Shown piece by piece: positions 2,535 to 21,569 of a stretch of DNA of 32,000 nucleotides. This DNA comes from Sinorhizobium meliloti. GTDB taxonomy: Bacteria > Pseudomonadota > Alphaproteobacteria > Rhizobiales > Rhizobiaceae. The stretch is from NCBI RefSeq assembly GCF_017876815.1, contig NZ_JAGIOS010000001.1:1230001-1262000 (forward strand), given 5' to 3'. Position 1 is the stretch's first letter; every line of letters starts with the position of its first letter. Position numbers and translations under genes: made by a program. The notes beneath the pieces are model-generated. The model saw only the letters and a program-made list of their open reading frames with translations. It was not told the DNA's origin and did no database searches.

Positions 2535-4319
2535 TCAGGCCGGCAGCTGGAAGAACCAGTTGGCAAACAGCACGATGGCGAGGCCTCCGCCGAGCGCCAG
2601 ATAGGGTAACATGCCCGCCTTCCTGACGCCGAGGTTCTGCCCGGAGAGGCCGAGATCCTCCATGGCTTCGAGCGGGAACCTGCCGCGATCCTGAAAGTAG
2701 TGGCGATAGGCGAAGACCGGCAGGATGAGCGCGGCGAAGATGAAGCCGACCCACAACGCATTGGAGTAGCCCCAGACCTTGGCGCCGGCGCCCAGGAAGA
2801 GCGCGTTCACGAAGGCCAGCACGGTGTTCAGGCCGATCAGCCAGGTCGGCGCCTTCCAGGGCCGCTCGATATGGCCGGAGTCGATACGGTGGATCCAGCC
2901 GGAGTTGAGGTTCAGGAAGTTGAAGATGATGTAGCCGACATTGGAGACGGCGAGCACGAAGAAGTAGCCGCCGACGTCCGAGGCGATGGCAAGCAGGAAC
3001 AGATTGAAAGCGAAGTCGGTCCACATGGCCCGGGTCGGCGCGCCGTTCTCGTTCACATGGTTGAGATATTTCGGCAGCCAGCCGTCCTTCGAGCCCTGGT
3101 AAAGCGTGCGCGAGGAACCGGCCATCGCCGTCATGATGGCGAGGAAGAGCGCGAGAATCATCAGAACGACGAGAAGCTGGGTGACGATACGGCCGGCGCC
3201 GATCAGGCCCCCGAGCGCCTCGGCCACACCCGTGCCGTCGATGATGCCGGGCGCCAGCATGCCGGCATGACCAAGCACCCCCTGGAAGGCGAAGGGTACG
3301 AGGAAGAAGAACAGGCAGCAGACGAGGCCGGAATAGAAGATCGCCTTGAAGGTGTCGGTCCGCGGGTTCTTCAGTTCGCGCGTATAGCAGACCGCCGTCT
3401 CGAACCCGTAAGTCGACCAGGCGGCGATATAGAGGCCGCCGAGAAAGAGCGTCCAGCCGCCATTGCTCCAGGTGCCGTCCTCGCCGGAATAGGCGGCCGT
3501 CGGTGGCACGAGGCCGGTGACGTTGGAGGCAACGATATGGCCGCTGACGATCGGATAGATGCCGATGATCAGCAAGGGAATGAGGACGAGCATAGCGAGC
3601 CACTTCTGAACGCTGGCGGTCCCGGCGATGCCGCGATGCTGGATCGCGAAGATGATCAGCATCAGGATGCCGCCGATCAGGAATGTGGCGTTGATATTGG
3701 CCGTGGCGAGGAAGGGTATGCTGAAGCTGACCAACGACCAGTTGCGGATCATGGGCGTCAGCGCCGCTACGCCGTCGGCTGCGAGAACCGCCTTGACGGC
3801 ATCCTCCGGCGGGGTGCCGGCATGGGCCGCGATATACTCGGCGACACGGGGGCTATCGGCGGTGACGGAGGCGGCATGGGCGCCGATCCAGTCGAGCACC
3901 GCCTGCGAGTCCGCCGCCGGAATCGGGAAGAGGGCATTGAGGATATAGCCCGCGGCGATCACGCAGCCGAGCGAGAGCACCGGCGACCAGGCGAACCAGT
4001 TGCACCAGACGGAAAGCGGCGCGATGAATTTCGAATAGCGCAGCCATGCGGTCGCTCCATAGATCGAGGCGCCGCCGGACTTGTTGGCGAACATCCCGGC
4101 GATTTCCGCATAGGTGAAGGATTGCAGGAAGCCCATGACCATCGAAATGATCCAGACCGCGAAGGCCAGCTTGCCGGTCGTGCCGGCAATGCCGCCGATG
4201 GAGAAGAGCACGAGCGGCGGCACGCCAGCTGCCACCCAGAAAGCGCCCTTCCAGTCGAGCGCGCGTATAAGCTTCCCCTCGGTGCCGGCAGCAATGCCGG
4301 CGTTCACCACATCTGTCAT
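2535..4319 (-). CDS. APC-superfamily permease (594 aa), probable TMAO/methylated-amine permease (TmoP-like by context)
   Basis: The ORF is hydrophobic along most of its length with many predicted TM helices. The N-terminal region is APC-like (WKGAFWVAAGVPPLV, SFTYAEIAGMF, GGASIYGATAW). SD AAGGGGAA lies 7 nt before ATG 4319. The gene is divergent from tdm. From memory, an APC-superfamily permease (Msil_3606) is required for TMAO growth in Methylocella silvestris. Confidence 0.85.
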   Translation of the reverse strand: MTDVVNAGIAAGTEGKLIRALDWKGAFWVAAGVPPLVLFSIGGIAGTTGKLAFAVWIISMVMGFLQSFTYAEIAGMFANKSGGASIYGATAWLRYSKFIAPLSVWCNWFAWSPVLSLGCVIAAGYILNALFPIPAADSQAVLDWIGAHAASVTADSPRVAEYIAAHAGTPPEDAVKAVLAADGVAALTPMIRNWSLVSFSIPFLATANINATFLIGGILMLIIFAIQHRGIAGTASVQKWLAMLVLIPLLIIGIYPIVSGHIVASNVTGLVPPTAAYSGEDGTWSNGGWTLFLGGLYIAAWSTYGFETAVCYTRELKNPRTDTFKAIFYSGLVCCLFFFLVPFAFQGVLGHAGMLAPGIIDGTGVAEALGGLIGAGRIVTQLLVVLMILALFLAIMTAMAGSSRTLYQGSKDGWLPKYLNHVNENGAPTRAMWTDFAFNLFLLAIASDVGGYFFVLAVSNVGYIIFNFLNLNSGWIHRIDSGHIERPWKAPTWLIGLNTVLAFVNALFLGAGAKVWGYSNALWVGFIFAALILPVFAYRHYFQDRGRFPLEAMEDLGLSGQNLGVRKAGMLPYLALGGGLAIVLFANWFFQLPA

Positions 4320-12483: not shown

Positions 12484-13374
12484 TCAGCCCATCCGTTCAG
12501 AGGCGTAGGAACCCGGGCTCGGCGGGAAGACGACGACGCGGTTGCCGTTGATGAAGCAGCGGTGGTGGATATGGGCGTGCACGGCCCGGGCCAGCACCTG
12601 GCTTTCGACGTCGCGGCCGATCGAGACATAATCCTCGGCCGACTGCGCATGGGTGATGCGGGCGATATCCTGCTCGATGATCGGGCCCTCGTCGAGATCG
12701 GCGGTGACGTAATGCGCCGTCGCGCCGATCAGCTTCACGCCGCGCTCATAGGCCTGCTTATAGGGGTTCGCCCCCTTGAACGACGGCAGGAAGGAGTGGT
12801 GGATGTTGATGATCTTCCCCGACATCTTCTTGCAGAGCGCATCCGAAAGCACCTGCATGTAGCGGGCCAGCACGATCAGCTCGGCGCCGGTCTGCTCGAC
12901 GACGTCCATCAGCTGGGCTTCGGCCTTGGGCTTGTTCTCCTTCGTCACCTTGATGTGGTGGAAGGGGATGTCGTGGTTGACGACCACCTTCTGGTAGTCG
13001 AAGTGGTTGGAAACGACGCCGACGATGTCGATCGGCAAGGCGCCGATCTTCCAGCGGTAGAGAAGATCGTTCAGGCAATGGCCGAAGCGCGACACCATGA
13101 GCAGCACCTTCATGCGCTCGGACTGTTCGTGGAGAGCCGTCTCCATCTCGAACTTCGAGGCGATCGGCTTCAGCCCTTCCTCGAGAGCCGCAAGGCCAAC
13201 CCGCTCCTCCGAGATGAAGCTGGTGCGCATGAAGAACTTGCCGGTATCCAGATCGTCGAACTGCGAGCTGTCGGCGATATTGCAGCCCTGCTCGGCCAGA
13301 TATCCCGATAGCGCCGCAACTACGCCACGCGTTGACTTGCAGGACACGGTCAGAACGAAATTCTGCATGTTCAT
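12484..13374 (-). CDS. purU: Formyltetrahydrofolate deformylase
   Basis: 296 aa from ATG 13374 (MNMQNFVLTVSC), preceded by GAGGGA. ATG 13368 is an alternative start. N-terminal ACT-like domain plus a formyltransferase core with INIHHSFLPSFKGANPY. Confidence 0.92.
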   Translation of the reverse strand: MNMQNFVLTVSCKSTRGVVAALSGYLAEQGCNIADSSQFDDLDTGKFFMRTSFISEERVGLAALEEGLKPIASKFEMETALHEQSERMKVLLMVSRFGHCLNDLLYRWKIGALPIDIVGVVSNHFDYQKVVVNHDIPFHHIKVTKENKPKAEAQLMDVVEQTGAELIVLARYMQVLSDALCKKMSGKIINIHHSFLPSFKGANPYKQAYERGVKLIGATAHYVTADLDEGPIIEQDIARITHAQSAEDYVSIGRDVESQVLARAVHAHIHHRCFINGNRVVVFPPSPGSYASERMG

Positions 13375-13577
13375 TTCTCTTCCCTCGCCGTTCGCGCGCA
13401 CGGGTGTCGATCCCATCCCCGTTGTCGACGTCGCAAATTGCTACCAGAGCAGATCGACGAAATCAATCCACAGGAAAATATATTTCTCCTCAGGCAACTT
13501 TTTCGCTTTCAGCGCGTGCCGGAAAACGGAGCGTGGGTGAGAAGAGATGCGGCAGAAGCGACGCTCTGCCGTGCGCC

Positions 13578-14309
13578 TCAGTCCTCTCCGCGGCCGCGCG
13601 GATAGGAAATGATAGACAGATACCGGATCGGCAGCGTGGTCAGTTCTTCCGGCCCGTGCGGCGCGTCGGCGTCGAAGAACAGACTGTCCCCCGGAGTCAT
13701 GCGGTAAAGATTGTTGCCATGCCGGTAGACCACCTCGCCTTCCAGCATGTAGAGGAACTCCAGGCCATCGTGTTGAAATGTCGGAAAGACGTCCGAGTCT
13801 TCGGTCAACGTGATGAGATAAGGCTCGACGACGACGCCGGAGGTGTTCGATCCGATATGGCCGAGGAGGTTGTACTGGTGGCCGGCGCGGGTGCCGCGCC
13901 GCTCGACGTCGACGCCTTCCCCCGCTTTGACGAACACGGCGCTATGCTCCTCCTCGAAACGGCGGAAGAAGGCGGTGATCGGCACGCCGAGCGCCCGCGA
14001 CAGCGTCTGCAAAGTCGTGAGCGACGGCGATGTGTTGCCGTTCTCGATCTTCGACAGCATGCCGACCGAAATATCGGTCGCGGAGGCGACGTCGGCTACT
14101 GTGATGCCGAGCTTCTTGCGGAAGGCACGCACTTCATGGCCGATCGCGACTTCCAGCACCTTTTCACGGGTGTCGCGGATTGCATGCGGATCCTGGGTCA
14201 GCGTGACACGTGCCAACTCCGCCGCCGTCTTGCGCGCGCCGCCGGCGCTTGTCGCCGCCTTGCCGTTCTTCTTCGAGTTCCGGTGCTTTTCCGCGTTTTC
14301 CCTGCCCAT
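13578..14309 (-). CDS. XRE-family HTH transcriptional regulator with a C-terminal cupin domain (PuuR-like architecture)
   Basis: 243 aa. HTH region LGITVADVASATDISVGMLSKIENG. Cupin region GLEFLYMLEGEVVYRHG...PGDSLFFDADAPHG. A basic N-terminal extension of about 55 aa is present. Confidence 0.85.
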   Translation of the reverse strand: MGRENAEKHRNSKKNGKAATSAGGARKTAAELARVTLTQDPHAIRDTREKVLEVAIGHEVRAFRKKLGITVADVASATDISVGMLSKIENGNTSPSLTTLQTLSRALGVPITAFFRRFEEEHSAVFVKAGEGVDVERRGTRAGHQYNLLGHIGSNTSGVVVEPYLITLTEDSDVFPTFQHDGLEFLYMLEGEVVYRHGNNLYRMTPGDSLFFDADAPHGPEELTTLPIRYLSIISYPRGRGED

Positions 14310-14326
14310 GCCAATCTCGCTTTGTT

Positions 14327-14341
14327 TTTACTGATAGTAAA
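14327..14341. promoter_or_regulatory. Palindrome TTTACTgatAGTAAA just upstream of the XRE-cupin regulator gene (possible autoregulatory operator)
   Basis: Perfect 6-3-6 inverted repeat 18-32 nt upstream of ATG 14309, inside an AT-rich patch of an otherwise GC-rich region. Confidence 0.35.
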
Positions 14342-14476
14342 TATTTCTGCGTGGTTCACAACGCTATACCCGCGTGGGCGAGGAAGTATTCCGCCCTGAG
14401 TAGAAGATCAACTCCCACTGCAGCCTATGCCTGCTCCGGCGATATGGTGCGCGTGAAGAGGCGTGGACAGCGTCAC

Positions 14477-14522
14477 TTGACAGTGGTTTCGCTTTGCCTG
14501 ACATTCCTGTTAGGCAAATATT
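14477..14522 (+). promoter_or_regulatory. Candidate promoter/operator of the small-protein/permease operon
   Basis: TTGACA at 14477-14482. Alternative -35-like TTGCCT (14494-14499), then a 17-nt spacer, then -10-like AATATT (14517-22). Inverted repeat TTTGCCT (14493-14499) -N12- AGGCAAA (14512-14518) overlaps these elements. Confidence 0.3.
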
Positions 14523-14613
14523 TTTTCTAAGCAGAAAACGGCCGACTTCCCGCATCGAAATTACAAGGAACGAAAAACCACCCGGAGGAGGAAACATTGG
14601 AGGAGGAAAGCGA

Positions 14614-14931
14614 ATGGAAGCGACACTAAGCAAGCTTGGCGAAGATGCGAGCTTCAGCCAGCGTATCGATGCAATGCACAGACGTGACCGCGTCTGCCTT
14701 ACGGCCTTCGTCGTGGTCCTCTGGTGCACCCTGCTCTTCGCGCTGTTTACCGTTTGGCCCTACATCGCAACGCCCGCCATCGCCGTCATCCTGACGGTCG
14801 CCTGCGGCCTGGTGCTGCTCTTCAACACAGCCGCCATCGTTGCCATGCTGCGACATTACGAAGAAGACAAGCACTTCATCTACAGCCTCGATCTCAAGCA
14901 TCTCGATGAGATGCGCCCGCAAAGCCGCTAG
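14614..14931 (+). CDS. Small membrane protein (105 aa, two predicted TM helices, charged C-terminal tail), function unknown
   Basis: ATG 14614 lies 4 nt after GGAGGAGGAAA. There are two long hydrophobic stretches (VCLTAFVVVLWCTLLFALFTVWPYI and AIAVILTVACGLVLLFNTAAIVAML). The third codon position is GC-rich. The stop TAG overlaps the SD of the next gene. Confidence 0.75.
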   Translation: MEATLSKLGEDASFSQRIDAMHRRDRVCLTAFVVVLWCTLLFALFTVWPYIATPAIAVILTVACGLVLLFNTAAIVAMLRHYEEDKHFIYSLDLKHLDEMRPQSR

Positions 14932-14939
14932 GAGGTATC

Positions 14940-15323
14940 ATGGCATACGAACCTCCGAAACAGAGCTTTGCAGGCCAGATCTTCGACGTGATCACGTTGC
15001 TCGTGCTGACCATCGGAGCGCTCTACATACCGCTCTATCTCGGCCTTGCGGGCGCGGCCAAGGTGCCCGATCCAATCCCCGATCCGACCTGGGAAGCGCT
15101 CGGCCAGAACGCCACCGAGCAGCAGCAGTGGGCCGCGCTCGGCATCACCGATCCGGCGGCCGCCAACGACATCATCACCGCGCGCTTCGACTACAGCTTC
15201 AGCTGGGCCTCGCTCATCGTCATGGCCGTGCTCGTCATCGGCTATTTCGTGATGGTGGTTCGGCTTTCCGACAGGGAATACCGCGAAGTGATCGAAGAGC
15301 GCTTCGGCACGGAACGACACTAG
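14940..15323 (+). CDS. Small membrane protein (127 aa, two predicted TM helices flanking a ~50-aa Pro/Asp/Ala-rich loop), function unknown
   Basis: The junction reads TAGGAGGtatcATG. Hydrophobic segments are IFDVITLLVLTIGALYIPLYLGLAG and FSWASLIVMAVLVIGYFVMVV. The third codon position is GC-rich. It lies 8 nt after the previous stop. Confidence 0.78.
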   Translation: MAYEPPKQSFAGQIFDVITLLVLTIGALYIPLYLGLAGAAKVPDPIPDPTWEALGQNATEQQQWAALGITDPAAANDIITARFDYSFSWASLIVMAVLVIGYFVMVVRLSDREYREVIEERFGTERH

Positions 15324-15336
15324 GGAGGCGGCGGCC

Positions 15337-15498
15337 ATGTGGGACATACTCGAATACGCGGCCTGGGCGCTTTCGGCGCTGTTCGGCGTGCTGATGCTCG
15401 CCGACCTCGTCCGCATCGACACCACTTACGACAACGAACTGCTGATCTCTTCTCGCGAAGGCGAGATCGAGGCGACGGCAGAGCGCCACGAGATCTGA
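15337..15498 (+). CDS. Very small membrane protein (53 aa, one predicted TM helix, acidic C-terminal tail), not in the supplied ORF track
   Basis: My own translation: MWDILEYAAWALSALFGVLMLADLVRIDTTYDNELLISSREGEIEATAERHEI. GGAGG (15324-15328) lies 8 nt before ATG 15337. The third codon position is strongly GC-rich. Stop TGA 15496-15498 is immediately followed by GGGGAGGA, the SD of the permease gene. Confidence 0.65.
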   Translation: MWDILEYAAWALSALFGVLMLADLVRIDTTYDNELLISSREGEIEATAERHEI

Positions 15499-15512
15499 GG
15501 GGAGGACGGCAA

Positions 15513-16910
15513 ATGGACGATACTACATCCGCCGCACCCGAGCCGGACCGGCTGCGCCTGCTGAGGGTGCTGGGGCCTGCTCACGTCTGGGCACTCGGCG
15601 TCGGCATCGTGCTCGTCGGCGAATATATGGGCTGGAATTTCTCGGTGGGCAAAGGCGGCATGATCGCCGGCCTGATGGCCTGCTGGGTGGCCGGCCTGCT
15701 CTACACCTGCGTCGCCATGATCGACTCGGAAGTGACTTCGACGGTCGCCGCGGCCGGCGGCCAGTACGCTCAGGCCAAGCACATCGTCGGGCCGCTGATG
15801 GCCTTCAATGTCGGCCTCTTCCTTGTGATGGCCTATACCATGCTCGAAGCCGCCAACGCCATCACGGTCGGCTTCCTGCTCGATACCGTGGCCGGAATGC
15901 AGGGCCAGACCGGACTCAATCAGCAACCCTTCATCGTTCTCGCGATCATGTTCCTGGCGTGGCTCAACTATCGCGGCGTGCTCGCCACCCTGACCTTCAA
16001 CCTGGTGATCACCGCCATCGCCTTCCTTGCGATCGTGGCGTTGTTCGTATCGGTGCAGTTCGGTGCCTCGGCGGTGCCGCTCGATTTTTCGGCCATCACC
16101 TCCGATCCGCTACCCTATGGCTGGGTGGGCATCGTGGCATCGCTGCATTTCGGGCTCTGGTACTATCTCGGCATCGAGGGTACCTGCCAGGCGGCCGAGG
16201 AGGTGCGCTCTCCTGCCCGCTCGCTTCCCTACGGCACGATGGCCGGCATCATGACGCTGCTGATCGCGGCGACCATGACCTGGTATATCTGCTCCGGCCT
16301 GATGCCGTGGGAATATCTTGGCCAGGCCGGCACGCCTTTGTTCGACGCCGCCCGCGTCACCGGCAGCACCGGACTGATGGTCCTGCTCTTCGTCGGCACG
16401 GCATTCGCCACGCTCGCCTCCGCCAACGGCTGCATCAACGACGCTTCCCGCGCCTGGTTCTCGATGAGCCGTGACCGTTATCTGCCAAGCTGGTTCGGTG
16501 CCGTCCATCCGGTCTACCGCACGCCCTATCGCGCGATCGTATTCCTGGTCCCGATCGCGCTCATCTTCGCGCTCGGCGCCCCGCTCGACCAGGTCGTGAC
16601 CTTCTCGATCCTGTCGGGTCTGCTCGGCTACACCTTCATGACCTTCAACATGGTGATGTTCCGAAACAAGTGGCCGCTCGGCAGGATCAAGCGCGGCTAC
16701 GTGCACCCGTTTCATCCTTTACCGACGGTCGTGCTGCTCATTCTGTGCTCGACCGCCTATTTCGCCGTGTTCCTGGGCTACGGCACGCAGCTCAGCGCGA
16801 TGATGTGCTTCTACATCGTGGCTTCGCTGTGGTTTCACTTCCGGCGCTACAAGTTCGTACGCCGCGGCGATCAGTTCACGATGCCGTGGCCAAAGCCACA
16901 CGGCTATTGA
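15513..16910 (+). CDS. APC-superfamily permease, ethanolamine-permease (EAT)-like (465 aa); candidate methylamine/small-amine importer
   Basis: ATG 15513 is preceded by GGGGAGGA. The 58 upstream codons of the track ORF are Arg-rich and overlap the 53-aa gene in another frame. The N-terminus LLRVLGPAHVWALGVGIVLVGEYMGWNFSVGKGG...AAGGQYAQAK resembles ethanolamine permeases. About 12 hydrophobic helices. Confidence 0.85.
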   Translation: MDDTTSAAPEPDRLRLLRVLGPAHVWALGVGIVLVGEYMGWNFSVGKGGMIAGLMACWVAGLLYTCVAMIDSEVTSTVAAAGGQYAQAKHIVGPLMAFNVGLFLVMAYTMLEAANAITVGFLLDTVAGMQGQTGLNQQPFIVLAIMFLAWLNYRGVLATLTFNLVITAIAFLAIVALFVSVQFGASAVPLDFSAITSDPLPYGWVGIVASLHFGLWYYLGIEGTCQAAEEVRSPARSLPYGTMAGIMTLLIAATMTWYICSGLMPWEYLGQAGTPLFDAARVTGSTGLMVLLFVGTAFATLASANGCINDASRAWFSMSRDRYLPSWFGAVHPVYRTPYRAIVFLVPIALIFALGAPLDQVVTFSILSGLLGYTFMTFNMVMFRNKWPLGRIKRGYVHPFHPLPTVVLLILCSTAYFAVFLGYGTQLSAMMCFYIVASLWFHFRRYKFVRRGDQFTMPWPKPHGY

Positions 16911-16916
16911 TCGGTT

Positions 16917-16976
16917 GGAGCGCGCCGCCCGTTTCGGATCGCGCGCTCCGGCTGCTTCTGAAACTGTCCGGAGCGC
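16917..16976 (+). other. GC-rich alternative hairpins downstream of the permease gene (possible terminator/antiterminator or REP-like element)
   Basis: GGAGCGCGC (16917-16925) pairs with GCGCGCTCC (16941-16949). The overlapping GCGCTCCGG (16943-16951) pairs with CCGGAGCGC (16968-16976). The two 9-bp stems are mutually exclusive. Neither is followed by a clear U-tract. Confidence 0.4.
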
Positions 16977-17015
16977 TTCCCGCGCAGAAGCCGCCGACCA
17001 AGCCAGGGCGATCGT

Positions 17016-17759
17016 ATGATCACCACAATTGCCTTCTCTGCCTTCGCAATAGCTTCCGGCATATGGATGAGCGTTCGCGCGGTCCGCGACCGCCGGGCCG
17101 CCATCGCCGAGCGCCGCGGCCTTCTGGACGACGCGGCGCGGCACTTTCCCGGCGCCCGCATAACTCACGGCGCAGATCATTTTCCGATCCTCGCCGGCAG
17201 GCTGGACGACGGGCGGCAGGTAAGGGTCGAACTCGTCCCCGACACGCTGGTCTGCCGCCGATTGCCGCAACTGTGGCTGAAGCTCACTTTGCTTGAAACG
17301 AGCCCCTGTGCCAGGCTCAAGATCGGTGCGCTGGCGCGGCCGACCGGCGCCGAATTCTACTCGCTGGTGCACGAGATGCCGCATCTGTTGATCCCGCCGC
17401 CCAGCGGGGCCGCCCTCCTGATGCGCGGCGACGGCAACGCATCGCGCCGGCAGGTCGAACGCGCCGCGGCCATGTTCGCCAAGCTGTTTGCCGATCCCAC
17501 GCTCAAGGAGGCCGCGATCACTCCACGCGGCGTGCGGCTGGTCCGCCAGGCGGCGCAGGGGCAACGCGGCGCCCATCTGCTGTTGCGGCAGGCGCACTTT
17601 TCAATCACGGCCATTGCGCCCGAGGTGATACGCCGGACGATCGCCGAAGCAGAGGCCCTGAGCGGATGGCTGGCGGACGATGAGCCCGCTTATTCGCTGC
17701 CGCCGTCGGCGGGGGCATTTCCAGAAGTATTCAGCGGTTTTCGGACCGGGAGTGCGTAG
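17016..17759 (+). CDS. Hypothetical protein (247 aa) with an N-terminal TM anchor
   Basis: The third codon position is GC-rich across the whole frame, whereas the competing antisense ORF 16719..17597 is Arg/Ala-rich junk. N-terminal helix ITTIAFSAFAIASGIWMSV. No family recognised by eye. Confidence 0.65.
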   Translation: MITTIAFSAFAIASGIWMSVRAVRDRRAAIAERRGLLDDAARHFPGARITHGADHFPILAGRLDDGRQVRVELVPDTLVCRRLPQLWLKLTLLETSPCARLKIGALARPTGAEFYSLVHEMPHLLIPPPSGAALLMRGDGNASRRQVERAAAMFAKLFADPTLKEAAITPRGVRLVRQAAQGQRGAHLLLRQAHFSITAIAPEVIRRTIAEAEALSGWLADDEPAYSLPPSAGAFPEVFSGFRTGSA

Positions 17760-17783
17760 TTTCGAATTGCTGAGGAGGTCGCC

Positions 17784-18047
17784 GTGGCCAAGCCGATCAA
17801 TCCCTATCTGGTGCTGATGCTGGCTGCGGTGTTGCCTGGGGCCGGCCATGTCGCCTTGCGCGACGCGGCTCGGGGCTTGGCCTTTGCCTTTTTCGTCGTA
17901 TTCTTTTCGGTGATCACCTACATGACGGCGCCACCGGACCGTTCCTTCATCGGACGGCATGCGGGCGGCATTTTCGTCTGGGCCCTGTCGATCCCCGACG
18001 CCTACCGCCGTGCGCGCATCCGTACGGTCATGGCCCGGAAGAGCTGA
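17784..18047 (+). CDS. Small membrane protein (87 aa, two or three predicted TM helices), function unknown
   Basis: GTG start 5 nt after GAGGAGG. Hydrophobic segments YLVLMLAAVLPGAGHVAL, LAFAFFVVFFSVITYM and GGIFVWALSI. The N-terminal LPGxGH-type motif is common in small uncharacterised membrane proteins. Confidence 0.65.
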   Translation: MAKPINPYLVLMLAAVLPGAGHVALRDAARGLAFAFFVVFFSVITYMTAPPDRSFIGRHAGGIFVWALSIPDAYRRARIRTVMARKS

Positions 18048-18092
18048 AGGGACGTTAAGTTCCTCACGTGCCGCTCACGCCGCGATCGACGT

Positions 18093-18120
18093 CAAAAATC
18101 CCCGTGCCGAGGCACGGGGA
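18093..18120 (-). terminator. Rho-independent terminator of the glxA-mgsABC-gmaS unit
   Basis: Stem CCCCGTGC (18100-18107) / GCACGGGG (18112-18119) with loop CGAG. On the minus strand it is followed by ATTTTTGA. It lies 31 nt after the gmaS stop. Confidence 0.8.
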
Positions 18121-18150
18121 TGGCCGCAAGGCTCCTGTGGAGATTCTAGT

Positions 18151-19458
18151 CTACACGTCGAGCGTGGTTTGGTGTTCCCATTCGGTGAATTGCGAACAAT
18201 AGGTGTTCCACTCGCCTTGCTTGAGTTTCAGATAGGCCGCGGAGAACTCTCGTCCCAAGGCCTCCTGCAACTCCTCGTCCCGATTGTATTCCCGCAATGC
18301 GTCGAGCAGGTTCAGCGGAAGCTTCGGTGCATCGGTTACCTTGTGGCCGTCCTTGTACATGTCGATGTCGTAGTGACGGCCGGGATCGGCTTTGGAGCGA
18401 ACGCCCGAAAGGCCGGCCGCAATGATGATCGCCTGCAGGAGATAGGGATTGACGGCGCCGTCCGGCAGGCGCAGCTCGAAACGGCCGGGGCCGGGAACGC
18501 GCACCATGTGGGTGCGGTTGTTGCCGGTCCAGGTCACCGAATTCGGCGCCCAGGTCGCGCCGGAGATCGTGCGCGGCGCGTTGATGCGCTTGTAGGAGTT
18601 GACCGTCGGATTGGTGACCGCGGCGAGCGCGCTTGCATGTTTCATGATGCCGCCCAGGAAGTGGCGTCCCTCGGCTGAAAGGCCGAACTCCGCCTTGTTG
18701 TCGGCAAAGGCATTCACCTCGCCTGCCAGATCCCAGACCGAAATGTGGCAATGGCAACCGTTGCCCGTCAGACCCTTGAACGGCTTCGGCATGAAGGTCG
18801 CGCGCAGCCCGTGCTTCTCGGCGATCGACTTCACCATGAACTTGAAGAAGGAGTGCTTGTCGGCGGTCCGGAGCGCGTCGTCATACTCCCAGTTCATCTC
18901 GAACTGGCCGTTCGCATCCTCATGGTCGTTCTGGTAGGGCTTCCATCCGAGTTCGAGCATGTAGTCGCAGATCTCGGCGATCACGTCGTAGCGGCGCATG
19001 ATCGCCTGCTGGTCATAGCAAGGCTTTTCCGCCGTATCGAACGTGTCGGAAATCTTCGATCCATCCGGCGAGATCAGAAAGAACTCCGGTTCGACGCCGG
19101 TCTTGACGCGAAGCCCTTCCTGGGCCGCCTCGGCGACGAGCTTCTTCAGCACCACGCGCGGTGCCTGTTCCACGGGCGCGTCGTCCATGATGCAGTCTGC
19201 CGCCACCCAGGCGACGTCCTTCTTCCAGGGGAGCTGGATGACCGCGGACGCATCCGGGAGAGCGAAGAGATCGGGATGCGCAGGCGTGAGATCGAACCAG
19301 GTGGCAAAACCTGCGAAGCCTGCGCCGCCCTTCTGCATGTCGGCGATCGCTTCCGCGGGAACCAGTTTGGCACGCTGCCCGCCGAAGAGATCGGTGTAGC
19401 TGATCATGAAATATTTGACGCCCTTTTCGCGGGCGAATGTGGAGAGATCCAGTGTCAC
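18151..19458 (-). CDS. gmaS: Gamma-glutamylmethylamide synthetase (type III glutamine-synthetase-like ligase)
   Basis: 435 aa from GTG 19458 (VTLDLSTFAREKGVKYFMISYTD), preceded by AAGGGGAA. Glutamine-synthetase catalytic domain (EPEFFL, NGCHCHISVW, NSYKR). Immediately downstream of mgsABC. The longer track ORF (start 19509) would have to translate through a terminator-like hairpin. Confidence 0.88.
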   Translation of the reverse strand: MTLDLSTFAREKGVKYFMISYTDLFGGQRAKLVPAEAIADMQKGGAGFAGFATWFDLTPAHPDLFALPDASAVIQLPWKKDVAWVAADCIMDDAPVEQAPRVVLKKLVAEAAQEGLRVKTGVEPEFFLISPDGSKISDTFDTAEKPCYDQQAIMRRYDVIAEICDYMLELGWKPYQNDHEDANGQFEMNWEYDDALRTADKHSFFKFMVKSIAEKHGLRATFMPKPFKGLTGNGCHCHISVWDLAGEVNAFADNKAEFGLSAEGRHFLGGIMKHASALAAVTNPTVNSYKRINAPRTISGATWAPNSVTWTGNNRTHMVRVPGPGRFELRLPDGAVNPYLLQAIIIAAGLSGVRSKADPGRHYDIDMYKDGHKVTDAPKLPLNLLDALREYNRDEELQEALGREFSAAYLKLKQGEWNTYCSQFTEWEHQTTLDV

Positions 19459-19486
19459 TTCGTTCCCCTTTTGGATTCCGACACTC

Positions 19487-19526
19487 AATTTCAAAAGAAA
19501 GGGCCGCACCCTCTCAAGTGCGGCCC
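19487..19526 (-). terminator. Terminator-like hairpin plus U-tract between mgsC and gmaS (intra-operon attenuator or processing site)
   Basis: Perfect 9-bp stem GGGCCGCAC (19501-19509) / GTGCGGCCC (19518-19526) with an 8-nt loop. On the minus strand it is followed by TTTCTTTTGAAATT. It lies 13 nt after the mgsC stop and about 30 nt before the gmaS SD. Confidence 0.6.
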
Positions 19527-19539
19527 GTCATCCTTTCAT

Positions 19540-20868
19540 TCAAAAGGTACCTTTGCCAGGATACCAGCTCGTTCCCGCGAGCGGCACCTGCGCCATGGCT
19601 GCGGCTTCCATCGTCAGCGCGCACAGATCCTCCGGCTCGAGATTGTGGAGGTGGTTCTTGCCGCAGGCACGGGCGATGGTCTGTGCTTCGAGCGTCATCA
19701 CCTTCAGATAGTTGGCCAGCCGCCGGCCGGCGGCGACCGGGTCGAGGCGCTTCATCAGTTCGGGGTCCTGCGTCGTGATGCCGGCGGGGTCCTTGCCCTC
19801 GTGCCAGTCGTCATAGGCGCCGGCCGTCGTGCCGAGCTTCTGGTATTCTTCTTCCCAGTGCGGGTCGTTGTCGCCGATGGCGACCAAGGCTGCGGTACCG
19901 ATGGCCACTGCGTCGGCTCCAAGCGCCAGCGCCTTGGCGACGTCCGCGCCGGAGCGGATACCACCGGACACGACGAGCTGTACCTTGCGGTGCATGCCGA
20001 GATCCTGCAGCGCCTGGACGGCTGGCCGAATGCAGGCAAGCGTCGGCATGCCGACATTCTCGATGAAGACGTCCTGCGTCGCCGCGGTCCCGCCCTGCAT
20101 GCCGTCGAGCACGACGACATCCGCACCGGCCTTGACCGCGAGCGCCGTGTCGTAATAGGGCCGCGCGCCGCCGACCTTGACGTAGATCGGCTTCTCCCAG
20201 TCGGTGATCTCGCGCAGTTCGAGGATTTTGATCTCGAGGTCGTCCGGCCCGGTCCAATCCGGATGACGGCAGGCCGAACGTTGGTCGATGCCCTTCGGCA
20301 GGTTGCGCATGTTGGCGACCCTGTCGGAGATCTTCTGGCCGAGCAGCATGCCGCCGCCACCGGGCTTGGCTCCTTGCCCGACCACCACCTCGATCGCATC
20401 CGCGCGGCGCAGATCCTTCGGATTCATGCCGTAACGCGACGGCAGGTACTGATACACGAGCGTCTGAGAATGACCGCGCTCCTCATCCGTCATACCGCCG
20501 TCGCCGGTGGTGGTCGACGTTCCCGAAGCCGTCGCACCGCGTCCGAGTGCTTCCTTGGCGGGACCGGAGAGTGCTCCGAAGCTCATGCCGGCGATGGTGA
20601 TCGGAATCTTCAGATGGATCGGCTTCTTCGCGAAGCGCGTTCCCAGAACGACGGAGGTGTCGCATTTCTCGCGGTAGCCTTCGAGCGGATAGCGCGAGAT
20701 CGATGCGCCGAGAAAGAGAAGGTCGTCGAAATGCGGGACCTTGCGCTTGGTGCCGGCGCCTCTGATATCATAAATGCCGGTCGCAGCCGCACGGCGGATT
20801 TCCGCAAGCGTATAGTCGTCGAAGGTCGCGGACTTGCGCGGCGGGGTATAGGGGTTGTGATAGCTCAT
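19540..20868 (-). CDS. mgsC: N-methylglutamate synthase subunit C (FMN-binding glutamate-synthase domain protein)
   Basis: 442 aa. GltB FMN-domain motifs VVGQGAKPGGGGML and SGGIRSGADVAKALALGADAV. Part of the three-gene split-GltS set next to gmaS. Confidence 0.88.
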   Translation of the reverse strand: MSYHNPYTPPRKSATFDDYTLAEIRRAAATGIYDIRGAGTKRKVPHFDDLLFLGASISRYPLEGYREKCDTSVVLGTRFAKKPIHLKIPITIAGMSFGALSGPAKEALGRGATASGTSTTTGDGGMTDEERGHSQTLVYQYLPSRYGMNPKDLRRADAIEVVVGQGAKPGGGGMLLGQKISDRVANMRNLPKGIDQRSACRHPDWTGPDDLEIKILELREITDWEKPIYVKVGGARPYYDTALAVKAGADVVVLDGMQGGTAATQDVFIENVGMPTLACIRPAVQALQDLGMHRKVQLVVSGGIRSGADVAKALALGADAVAIGTAALVAIGDNDPHWEEEYQKLGTTAGAYDDWHEGKDPAGITTQDPELMKRLDPVAAGRRLANYLKVMTLEAQTIARACGKNHLHNLEPEDLCALTMEAAAMAQVPLAGTSWYPGKGTF

Positions 20869-20882
20869 ACTGGTCCCTGCCT

Positions 20883-21569
20883 TTAATACGCGTCTGCGTT
20901 GTCGATGTTGAAATTGTAGAGCTTGCGTGCCGAGCCGTAGCGCTTGAACTCTTCCGGCCGGACATCCTTGACATCGGCCTTCTCCAGGAGCTCGGCCAGC
21001 TTTTGCAGGTGCTCCGGACGCATCTCCTTCTCGATGCAGTCGGCGCCGAGACTCTTGACCGTGCCGCGTACGAAGAGCTTGGCCTCGTAGAGGCTGTCAC
21101 CCAAGGCATCGCCCGCATCGCCGAGCACGACGAGGTGGCCCGACTGGCCCATGAAAGCCGACATATGGCCGATATTTCCGTGGACGACGATATCGATGCC
21201 TTTCATCGAGATGCCGCAGCGCGACGCCGCATTGCCCTTTATGACGAGCAGGCCGCCGCGCCCGGTAGCGCCCGCATACTGGCTGGCATCGCCTTCGATC
21301 ACGACTTTGCCGGACATCATGTTTTCCGCGACGCCCGGTCCTGCCGAGCCGTGAACCGTGACCGTTCCGCCATCGTTCATGCCGGCGCAATAGTAGCCGA
21401 CGGAGCCGTTCACATCGACCACGACGGGACCGTCGATCCCGACGGCGACCGCATGGCTGCCACGAGGATTGGCGACTTCGTAGGACAGATCGTTCGAGCC
21501 CTGCTGAATATTATGCAAGGACCTATTGAATTCACGCAGCGGCGTGGTGGCGAGATCAATAACAGGCAT
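20883..21569 (-). CDS. mgsB: N-methylglutamate synthase subunit B (GXGXG-motif, GltB C-terminal-domain-like protein)
   Basis: 228 aa. Repeated beta-helix GXGXG-type segments are present (VHGSAGPGVAENM, VIKGNAASRCGISM, VVHGNIGHMSAFMG, VVLGDAGDALGDSL). Confidence 0.87.
   Translation of the reverse strand: MPVIDLATTPLREFNRSLHNIQQGSNDLSYEVANPRGSHAVAVGIDGPVVVDVNGSVGYYCAGMNDGGTVTVHGSAGPGVAENMMSGKVVIEGDASQYAGATGRGGLLVIKGNAASRCGISMKGIDIVVHGNIGHMSAFMGQSGHLVVLGDAGDALGDSLYEAKLFVRGTVKSLGADCIEKEMRPEHLQKLAELLEKADVKDVRPEEFKRYGSARKLYNFNIDNADAY

Follow-up and report, generated by a model that had tools for sequence, protein, structure and literature searches.

Known uptake routes and partnered permeases

In soil, in the rhizosphere and in the sea, methylated amines rank among the major sources of carbon and nitrogen. 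Known parts of their utilisation include the enzymes Tmm, Tdm, Dmm, GmaS, Mgs and Mgd and the trimethylamine N-oxide (TMAO) importers TmoXWV and TmoP, and the AmtB/Mep/Rh channels represent the classical route for methylammonium. The entry of methylamine into cells employing the N-methylglutamate (NMG) pathway was still drawn as an unidentified 'MA transporter' in 2026: in the model for Aminobacter sp. NyZ550, methylamines enter the cell 'via MA transporters' and are sensed by 'an unidentified sensor system' (PMC13199381). The present analysis concerns a stretch of 32,000 nucleotides (nt) of Sinorhizobium meliloti (contig NZ_JAGIOS010000001.1 of assembly GCF_017876815.1, positions 1,230,001 to 1,262,000 of the forward strand), hereafter the window. 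It contains a cassette of six genes, here designated O1 to O6, which code for an APC-superfamily permease (O4) and five partner proteins. Judged by sequence and genomic context, this cassette is a good candidate for the still missing system by which bacteria take up methylamine. A literature search found no paper on the cassette genes or on an APC-type methylamine permease.

Among the described systems, the ethanolamine permease Eat (TIGR00908) resembles O4 in several respects. Both belong to the same Pfam family, TIGR00908 is the best curated model for O4, both carry the same signature in the first transmembrane segment (TM1) and an IEG..AAEE motif, and the presumed substrate of both is a small protonated amine. 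Unlike Eat, O4 never adjoins eutBC, it ends in a C-terminal tail that Eat does not have, and it is always accompanied by the five partner genes, whereas the eat genes that were inspected have no annotated partners. TmoP of Methylocella silvestris (NF053774) is likewise an APC permease located inside methylated-amine clusters; it is encoded in the same window and adjoins the cassette in Paraburkholderia. It belongs, however, to another subfamily, with 594 amino acids (aa) as against 465 aa in O4, and lacks dedicated small partner genes. The AmtB/Mep/Rh channels share with the cassette the proposed substrate, methylammonium, but are of an unrelated fold, O4 being an APC carrier and not a channel.

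Large permeases with small membrane subunits are represented by the sodium:solute symporter (SSS) ActP with YjcH/DUF485, the TRAP transporters with DctQ and the TTT transporters with TctB. These systems and the cassette have in common that the gene for a tiny membrane protein is translationally coupled just upstream of the gene for the large permease. Their partners serve SSS, TRAP and TTT permeases, however, and not those of the APC type, and O1, O2 and O3 match none of their Pfam families. Closer in the nature of the carrier are the pairing of SLC7 light chains with SLC3 heavy chains and the complex of GkApcT with MgtS, a single-TM protein that packs on TM5 of the transporter (PMC5803215); in both, as proposed for the cassette, an APC/SLC7 transporter is joined by a separate membrane-spanning partner. 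O1 to O3, O5 and O6 are homologous to neither SLC3 nor MgtS, and the cassette differs in having five partners that are genetically hard-wired to the permease, while the GkApcT-MgtS pairing brings together the proteins of two species and arose in heterologous expression. Whatever the substrate, an APC carrier that never occurs without five dedicated partners would be unusual in bacteria. Such a system could help to explain the assembly, stabilisation or gating of LeuT-fold carriers by small membrane proteins, so far mainly a theme of the eukaryotic SLC7/SLC3 transporters.

Organisation and conservation of the cassette

All six genes lie on the plus strand of the window, in the order O1 (14614-14931, 105 aa), O2 (14940-15323, 127 aa), O3 (15337-15498, 53 aa), the permease gene O4 (15513-16910, 465 aa), O5 (17016-17759, 247 aa, with 232 aa in most relatives) and O6 (17784-18047, 87 aa). 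The O1/O2, O2/O3 and O3/O4 gaps measure 8, 13 and 14 nt, and the stop codons of O1, O2 and O3 fall within or abut Shine-Dalgarno sequences of the GGAGG type (junctions TAGGAGGtatcATG, TAGGGAGGcggcggccATG and TGAGGGGAGGAcggcaaATG). The window sequence thus bears out what a first-pass annotation of this DNA had described, namely four plus-strand open reading frames of 105, 127, 53 and 465 aa with these gaps and fused stop codons. The first-pass annotation took the four genes as the complete module; the four reading frames are real and conserved, but the conserved unit comprises six genes, O5 and O6 following downstream. The junctions suggestive of translational coupling are kept across loci, the median gaps from O1 to O6 being 10, 11, 11, 59 and 8 nt (n = 87 loci). 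As regards the start of the permease, the O4 frame is open for a further 174 nt 5' of the ATG at 15513, up to a GTG at 15339. The extended frame (15339-16910, plus strand, 523 aa) covers the whole of O3 in another frame and could mislead gene callers; this long form is probably an artefact, and the ATG at 15513 is favoured by alignment with relatives.

A scan of one genome per species located relatives of O2 in 319 of 185,579 species. The genome and plasmid set of 87 loci consists of the best 80 of these, together with seven plasmid loci, and a second, independent set consists of 80 metagenome loci obtained with remote relatives of O2 as search seeds. Every one of the 87 genome and plasmid loci has the order O1-O2-O3-O4, well beyond what chance would produce. 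With few exceptions, O5 and O6 follow wherever the sequence reaches far enough; the Manganibacter cassette lacks O6. In the metagenome loci, where the contig is long enough, O1 is present in 67 of 68, O3 in 73 of 74, O4 in 60 of 61, O5 in 35 of 35 and O6 in 31 of 32. The metagenome proteins are 63-78% (O4), 38-65% (O2), 35-57% (O1) and 30-45% (O5) identical to those of the window. Approximately 170 loci in all, from Hyphomicrobiales, Rhodobacterales, Paraburkholderia and metagenomes, share the order O1-O2-O3-permease-O5-O6. All six genes occur in this order in the betaproteobacterium Paraburkholderia caribensis, and the order is also found in Paracoccus and Pseudohalocynthiibacter. Annotated relatives on Aminobacter aminovorans pAA01, Pararhizobium qamdonense p2 and Paracoccus aminophilus pAMI6 appear as three hypothetical genes, an amino acid permease and then hypothetical genes of about 232 and 87 aa. 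Median pairwise dN/dS values are 0.22 for O1, 0.10 for O2, 0.18 for O3, 0.08 for O4, 0.30 for O5 and 0.17 for O6, and as these fall between 0.08 and 0.30, all six genes are protein-coding and constrained.

The partnership between the small proteins and the permease is exclusive. In the plasmid collection, tblastn detects O2 in 22 records and the permease in the same 22 records, at 68-100% identity; the next permease matches reach at most 32% identity and are annotated as eat. Because the interval between 68% and 32% identity is empty and the lower matches are annotated eat genes, the cassette permeases constitute a separate EAT-like subfamily. The co-occurrence of the small genes with an EAT-like permease, a check proposed with the first-pass annotation, is one-to-one with this distinct subfamily in 22 of 22 plasmid records. 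With 152 clusters at the 50% identity level, out of 1.84 billion representatives, the O2 family is small. Five longer members (P0313, P0323, P0265, P0263 and P0359) that were considered as fusion proteins are frameshifted read-throughs of adjoining genes; the read-throughs from O1 into O2 and from O2 through O3 into O4 incidentally confirm the synteny. With its own conserved putative promoter, described below, the cassette would be a horizontally portable, self-contained six-gene operon.

The permease O4

By its Pfam matches, O4 is a permease of the APC superfamily: residues 29-431 are covered by PF13520 (AA_permease_2, 88.1 bits, cutoff 27) and PF00324 (AA_permease, 87.3 bits, cutoff 24.6). 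Its closest sequence match in the PDB is GkApcT (6f34/5oqt, E = 2e-15, residues 17-426), and the same residues also match CAT, LAT1, xCT, b0,+AT and AdiC. Together with at least 11 hydrophobic segments identified by hydropathy, these matches to solved relatives point to a LeuT-type APC fold.

The score of O4 on its best curated model, TIGR00908 (ethanolamine permease), is 182.1 bits, under half the cutoff of 381.75, and its identity to two annotated Eat proteins is 26-31%. The initial description of the permease as ethanolamine-permease-like can therefore be retained in the sense of an EAT-like subfamily, but O4 is no true Eat. The TmoP model NF053774 is not among the 16 NCBIfam families matched by O4. 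O4 carries the TM1 motif GVGIVLVGEYMGWNF and a further motif, IEGTCQAAEEVRSP. Its segments VGEYMGWNF and QAAEEVRSP stand against AGEYFGWSY/SGDFAGWNF and MAAEEAKNP/LAAEEAKNP in the two Eat sequences compared, and the TM1 signature G-[DE]-[YF]-x-G-W and the AAEE motif are common to O4 and Eat. The conserved C-terminal tail of O4, RRGDQFTMPWPKPxGY, is absent from the Eat proteins. O4 thus represents a new subfamily within a known superfamily and is joined by partners from five uncharacterised families.

The TM1 signature also bears on the nature of the substrate. In the HMMER alignment, V-G-E-Y of O4 lies opposite G-T-G of GkApcT. Glu37 of O4 is an acidic residue in the unwound part of TM1, as in the annotated Eat proteins, and its position is occupied in the amino-acid-transporting APC proteins by the second glycine of the G-S/T-G motif. 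On the analogy of LeuT-fold carriers, the carboxylate of Glu37 would replace the carboxylate of an amino-acid substrate. The substrate of O4 may consequently be a small protonated amine, since the protein's own carboxylate would stand in for that of the substrate.

The partner proteins

Two hydrophobic segments each are found by hydropathy in O1 and O2 and one in O3, in keeping with the earlier description of these products as proteins with one or two TM segments and charged C-terminal tails. The further statement that they belong to no named family agrees with the hidden Markov model check, in which none of O1, O2 and O3 matched a Pfam or NCBIfam family at E < 0.01. The 25 relatives of O1 searched against the families gave scattered noise matches only, and weak matches to Rv2743c/PspM, ExoX and DUF4153 that arose in family searches with O1 to O3 and O5 were discarded as noise. 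The two TM segments of O1 are accompanied by a conserved cytoplasmic C-terminal motif, FNTAAIxAMLRHYxEDKxFIYGLDxKHLDE, and then a basic tail. The AlphaFold2 (AF2) model of O2 (pLDDT 79) shows a pair of TM helices along with about 45 aa of periplasmic loop, which folds into two short helices; no structural neighbour of this model was found in the PDB. The most conserved parts of O2 across distant relatives are the cytoplasmic N-terminal PPxQSxxGQxxD and C-terminal SxxEYRxVIxExFG. O3, with its single TM segment, ends in an acidic tail in which the motif SSREGExEA is invariant.

O5 is composed of a long N-terminal TM helix, an alpha/beta domain and a disordered C-terminal tail (AF2 pLDDT 83.5), the alpha/beta domain being predicted to be cytoplasmic by the positive-inside rule. 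O5 matches no family in Pfam or NCBIfam. A Foldseek search with the model yields a marginal match to TtfA (6t84; E = 5.7e-3, TM-score 0.37 by query and 0.48 by target, 9% identity), short of the TM-score of 0.5 that would mark a confident superposition, and its other top matches, which are weak, are chains of entries of the endoplasmic reticulum (ER) multipass translocon, which may be CCDC47. TtfA, a mycobacterial accessory factor of the lipid transporter MmpL3, and the translocon chains have an N-terminal TM anchor and an alpha/beta domain in common with O5 and are helpers of other membrane proteins; they have no sequence-family link to O5 and provide a lead only.

The small O6 is polytopic in the membrane and carries the motifs NPYLVLxLAxxLPGAGHV and SFIGRHAGGLFVWALSIPDAYRRAR. 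It scores 17.8 bits on DUF6677 (PF20382), against a gathering threshold of 24.3, over residues 10-40 only. Among 25 relatives of O6, 20 match DUF6677 at E < 0.01 (best 1.8e-5), suggesting that O6 is probably a distant relative of this family, itself without an assigned function. The cassette would define five new protein families.

Putative promoter and operator, and the intra-operon hairpin

Alignment of the 260 nt 5' of O1 from 29 loci of three orders reveals a conserved block, at 14474-14530 on the plus strand of the window. It comprises a -35 element CTTGACA (14476-14482), a 17-nt spacer and a -10-like hexamer GACATT (14500-14505; GAYATT-like across the loci). An imperfect palindrome of the type GGCAAAT..ATTTGCC follows the hexamer, around the likely transcription start. 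The block is common to the cassette loci of Hyphomicrobiales, Rhodobacterales and Paraburkholderia and represents a putative promoter and operator. A consensus promoter scan upstream of O1 returned no sigma-70 site, and the 'terminator' that a scan placed at 14493-14518 overlaps the conserved -10/operator block in the cross-locus comparison and is no terminator. A motif check ruled out the palindrome as a SecR site (CCYACCCG). No second copy of the operator, which would have linked the cassette with the regulon for methylamines, occurs within the window.

A GC-rich stem-loop lies in the O4-O5 gap, directly 3' of the stop codon of the permease gene (16913-16953, plus strand). Over 74 loci, the folding of this gap has a median z of -3.3, with 76% of the values below -2, while the window's own gap reaches only z = -0.8. 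RNAalifold on 32 loci yields 10 pairs, seven of them with compensatory changes, the sequence varying by clade while the pairing is kept, and in some loci the hairpin is followed by a U-tract. The hairpin is probably an intra-operon attenuator or an RNA-stabilising element. Since it is conserved and separates O4 from O5, the cassette can be regarded as a 4+2 operon with O1 to O4 as the proximal, tightly coupled segment, and expression of O5 and O6 would be weaker than that of O1 to O4. As a search of Rfam with the whole window produced no match, the leader and the hairpin belong to no known riboswitch or RNA family.

Genomic context and the association with methylamine genes

On its 5' side the window carries, in order, tmoP, tdm, tmm, dmmDABC, purU and a gene for an XRE-cupin regulator, followed by the cassette, 3' of which lie gmaS, mgsCBA, a gene for a GlxA-type regulator, mgdABCD and folD. 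The tmoP gene (2535-4319, minus strand) adjoins tdm, and its product, a TMAO permease of the APC type, scores 840 bits on the equivalog model NF053774 (TmaoPremMsil; cutoff 690). The first-pass annotation saw no obvious methylamine or dimethylamine importer for the pathway in the window; the pathway does have an importer, since a full-score match to TmoP means that the window holds a known methylated-amine importer. No amtB gene is annotated in CP090106.1, a near-identical record that covers the region. The gmaS gene (18151-19509, minus strand), annotated as glnT (type III glutamate-ammonia ligase), reaches 672 bits on TIGR03105 (cutoff 469.6) and is convergent with the cassette; its product is the presumed consumer of imported methylamine. 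The regulator gene (13578-14309, minus strand), divergent from the cassette and outside it, codes for an XRE-type helix-turn-helix (HTH) domain and a cupin (Pfam HTH_3 and Cupin_2). The architecture is PuuR-like, and the score on the PuuR model is 54 bits as against a cutoff of 211. This regulator accompanies methylamine clusters and not the cassette, and growth of Aminobacter on methylamines is unaffected by a double xre deletion (PMC13199381).

NMG- or trimethylamine (TMA)-pathway genes are found within 10 kb of the cassette in 31 of the 87 genome and plasmid loci, and a further 23 carry the serine-cycle genes ppc and glyA within the same distance, bringing the loci with a link to one-carbon (C1) metabolism to 54 of 87. 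Eight others have a different glutamine synthetase (GS)-like gene directly upstream of the cassette. Among the metagenome loci of at least 7 kb, 19 of 32 contain mgs, gmaS, tmm, mgd or tmoP within 6 kb. The arrangements vary: in Sinorhizobium the cassette and gmaS converge, in Paracoccus aminophilus the cassette and mgsABC-gmaS diverge, some Mesorhizobium have it beside tmm and tdm, in Paraburkholderia a dmmD-like gene and tmoP come after it, and Aureimonas shows yet another arrangement. That the arrangements differ between lineages argues for functional rather than inherited linkage. A search for EutB, EutC and amine oxidase in 170 cassette loci (2.2 Mb) gave no match, and the absence of eutBC from all these loci speaks against a link to ethanolamine. 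Of two eat genes that were inspected, one adjoins eutBC and the other a primary-amine oxidase gene, and neither has annotated partner genes.

The cassette is present in two strains that have already been studied, Aminobacter sp. NyZ550 and Paracoccus aminophilus JCM 7686, and offers a concrete and genetically tractable candidate for the transporter. In NyZ550 it is carried on pMET1 (N7E70_RS28895 to RS28870). In the published account of methylotrophy in P. aminophilus, mgsABC-gmaS corresponds to pAMI6p108-105, and the adjoining cassette is not mentioned.

Proposed function and alternative explanations

The best-supported explanation, to which we give about an even chance, is that the cassette serves as an optional and portable system of several components for the uptake of small protonated amines, and most probably of methylated ones. 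The carrier would be O4, a secondary transporter from a sister subfamily of the ethanolamine permeases. The gene neighbourhoods suggest that its substrate is most probably monomethylammonium, which would be delivered to GmaS and the NMG pathway. O1, O2 and O3, produced from the same tightly coupled segment of the transcript, would be obligate membrane subunits that pack against the permease and stabilise, assemble or gate it, while O5 and O6, encoded in the distal segment behind the hairpin and presumably made at a lower level, would serve as assembly or regulatory factors. The cassette as a whole would be an add-on to methylamine catabolism that provides high-capacity or high-affinity uptake, and not an essential part of the pathway. 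It is from the sequence record that we infer the substrate, the direction of transport, the physical complex with its stoichiometric assembly, and the role of each partner. Only tentatively, as something that falls somewhat short of an even chance, do we put forward the stronger version, in which the cassette would code for the first obligate hetero-oligomeric APC transporter of bacteria, composed of the permease, three co-translated small membrane subunits and two further factors, and would be the long-sought inducible methylamine/methylammonium transporter of NMG methylotrophs that is possibly a sensor as well, with five new families of partners.

Several observations weigh against this proposal. 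None of the NMG, TMA, serine-cycle or GS-like genes is near the cassette in 25 of the 87 genome and plasmid loci. Of the 32 long metagenome loci, 13 have no C1 gene nearby, so that approximately 30-40% of the cassette loci are without one; in Manganibacter and in one Pararhizobium, the only neighbours of the cassette are unrelated genes. Conversely, gmaS occurs in 210 plasmid or chromid records and the cassette in 22, with 188 of the 210 gmaS records having no cassette on the same replicon, and pRL11 of Rhizobium johnstonii 3841 has a full tmm-dmm-gmaS-mgs-mgd cluster without it. Because most gmaS replicons and pRL11 are devoid of the cassette, methylamine catabolism does not need it. As to the association with gmaS and mgsABC that the first-pass annotation proposed to check, the cassette is strongly enriched beside these genes, beside tmm, tdm, dmm and tmoP and beside serine-cycle genes in three orders, but most gmaS replicons do without it. 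Context alone cannot separate monomethylamine (MMA), dimethylamine (DMA) and TMA as substrates, and the deduction from Glu37 in TM1 rests on analogy. Co-occurrence by itself is no proof of a physical complex, no natural fusion of a small protein with the permease was found among the 152 O2-family clusters, and the likeness of the O5 fold to that of TtfA is marginal.

An alternative is that the same multi-component permease is a general scavenger of small amines and ammonium (ethylamine, ethanolamine, other primary amines or NH4+, for example) feeding gamma-glutamyl-amine synthetases of several specificities. The best family model of O4 is that of an ethanolamine permease, about a third of the loci are without nearby C1 genes, eight Pararhizobium and Rhizobium loci have a different GS-like gene upstream and most gmaS clusters have no cassette. 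Such breadth is unlikely nonetheless, given that eutBC and amine oxidase genes occur in none of the approximately 170 loci and that adjacency to mgs, gmaS, tmm, tdm or tmoP recurs in three orders and in several arrangements. The carriers of the cassette include Aminobacter and P. aminophilus, classical methylotrophs on methylated amines, and the Aminobacter cassette plasmid also bears serine-cycle methylotrophy genes. A function mainly in sensing, with the permease-like protein as a transceptor that binds methylated amines and with O5 and the cytoplasmic tails of O1 to O3 relaying a signal that induces the catabolic genes, would fill the place of the sensor system invoked in the 2026 Aminobacter model (PMC13199381). 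It would also suit the dispensability of the cassette for the pathway in many genomes, the cytoplasmic location of the most conserved motifs of O1, O2 and O3 and the cytoplasmic domain of O5, to which no function is assigned. We consider it improbable: Pfam and NCBIfam reveal no recognisable kinase, HTH or anti-sigma domain in the six proteins, O4 keeps the motifs of a transport family and is very strongly constrained from end to end, and because many methylamine users lack the cassette, it cannot be a general sensor.

It is also conceivable that the five partners form no complex with the permease and perform a separate, co-transcribed membrane function, or that the system works outwards, in (methyl)ammonium export and protection from amine toxicity. 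The position of O5 and O6 behind the hairpin, where they could be functionally separate, and the lack of fusion proteins would fit the former, and the ammonium release reported for methylamine-degrading Rhodobacteraceae (PMC7574528) would fit the latter. The perfect co-occurrence and fixed order over a deep divergence (O1 down to 35% identity) and the junctions of 8-14 nt are hard to explain for unrelated functions, however, and relatives of O2 are found in the context of the cassette only. The characterised EAT/APC relatives are, as is generally known for TC 2.A.3, importers or exchangers, and there is accordingly little probability in either form of this explanation. The proposed uptake of methylated amines by a multi-component carrier is thus the explanation that we retain.

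Further observations on cassette loci

Genes of the GS family lie upstream of the cassette in the Pararhizobium and Rhizobium loci L004 (8305-9657), L024, L027-L029, L031, L032 and L051. The encoded protein shares 25% identity with GmaS and reaches 213 bits on TIGR03105. It attains the cutoff of none of the GS models and could be a gamma-glutamyl-amine ligase with another specificity.

On pRL11, the gene order is tmm-dmmCBAD-purU-gmaS-mgsCBA-XRE-GlxA-mgd, and the cassette, tdm and tmoP are absent. In the corresponding part of the window (12484-19509), the XRE gene adjoins purU and the cassette is located between the XRE gene and gmaS. By comparison with pRL11, the cassette in the window looks like the insertion or rearrangement of a mobile module.

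On pMET1 of NyZ550, a gene for a response regulator follows ppc-glyA, 6 kb upstream of the cassette (2572-3219 of locus L092). By its position, this is the putative plasmid-borne SecR2 of PMC13199381; if it is SecR2, the cassette would lie beside a SecR-controlled serine-cycle operon. The genes hppD, hmgA, FAH and maiA of homogentisate/tyrosine catabolism are found a few kb downstream of the cassette (for example at 15900-21300 of locus L002 and 14700-20363 of locus L086), in 14 loci of Aminobacter and a related Mesorhizobium. The same neighbourhood occurs independently in the Rhodobacterales strain Pseudohalocynthiibacter, and it may be due to chance or reflect a second functional link.

The window is 98.8% identical to CP090106.1. 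This record is titled 'plasmid pSymB', yet at 3.72 Mb it is chromosome-sized for S. meliloti and the replicon label is probably wrong, as are probably those of several Sinorhizobium 'plasmid' records of 3.5 Mb.

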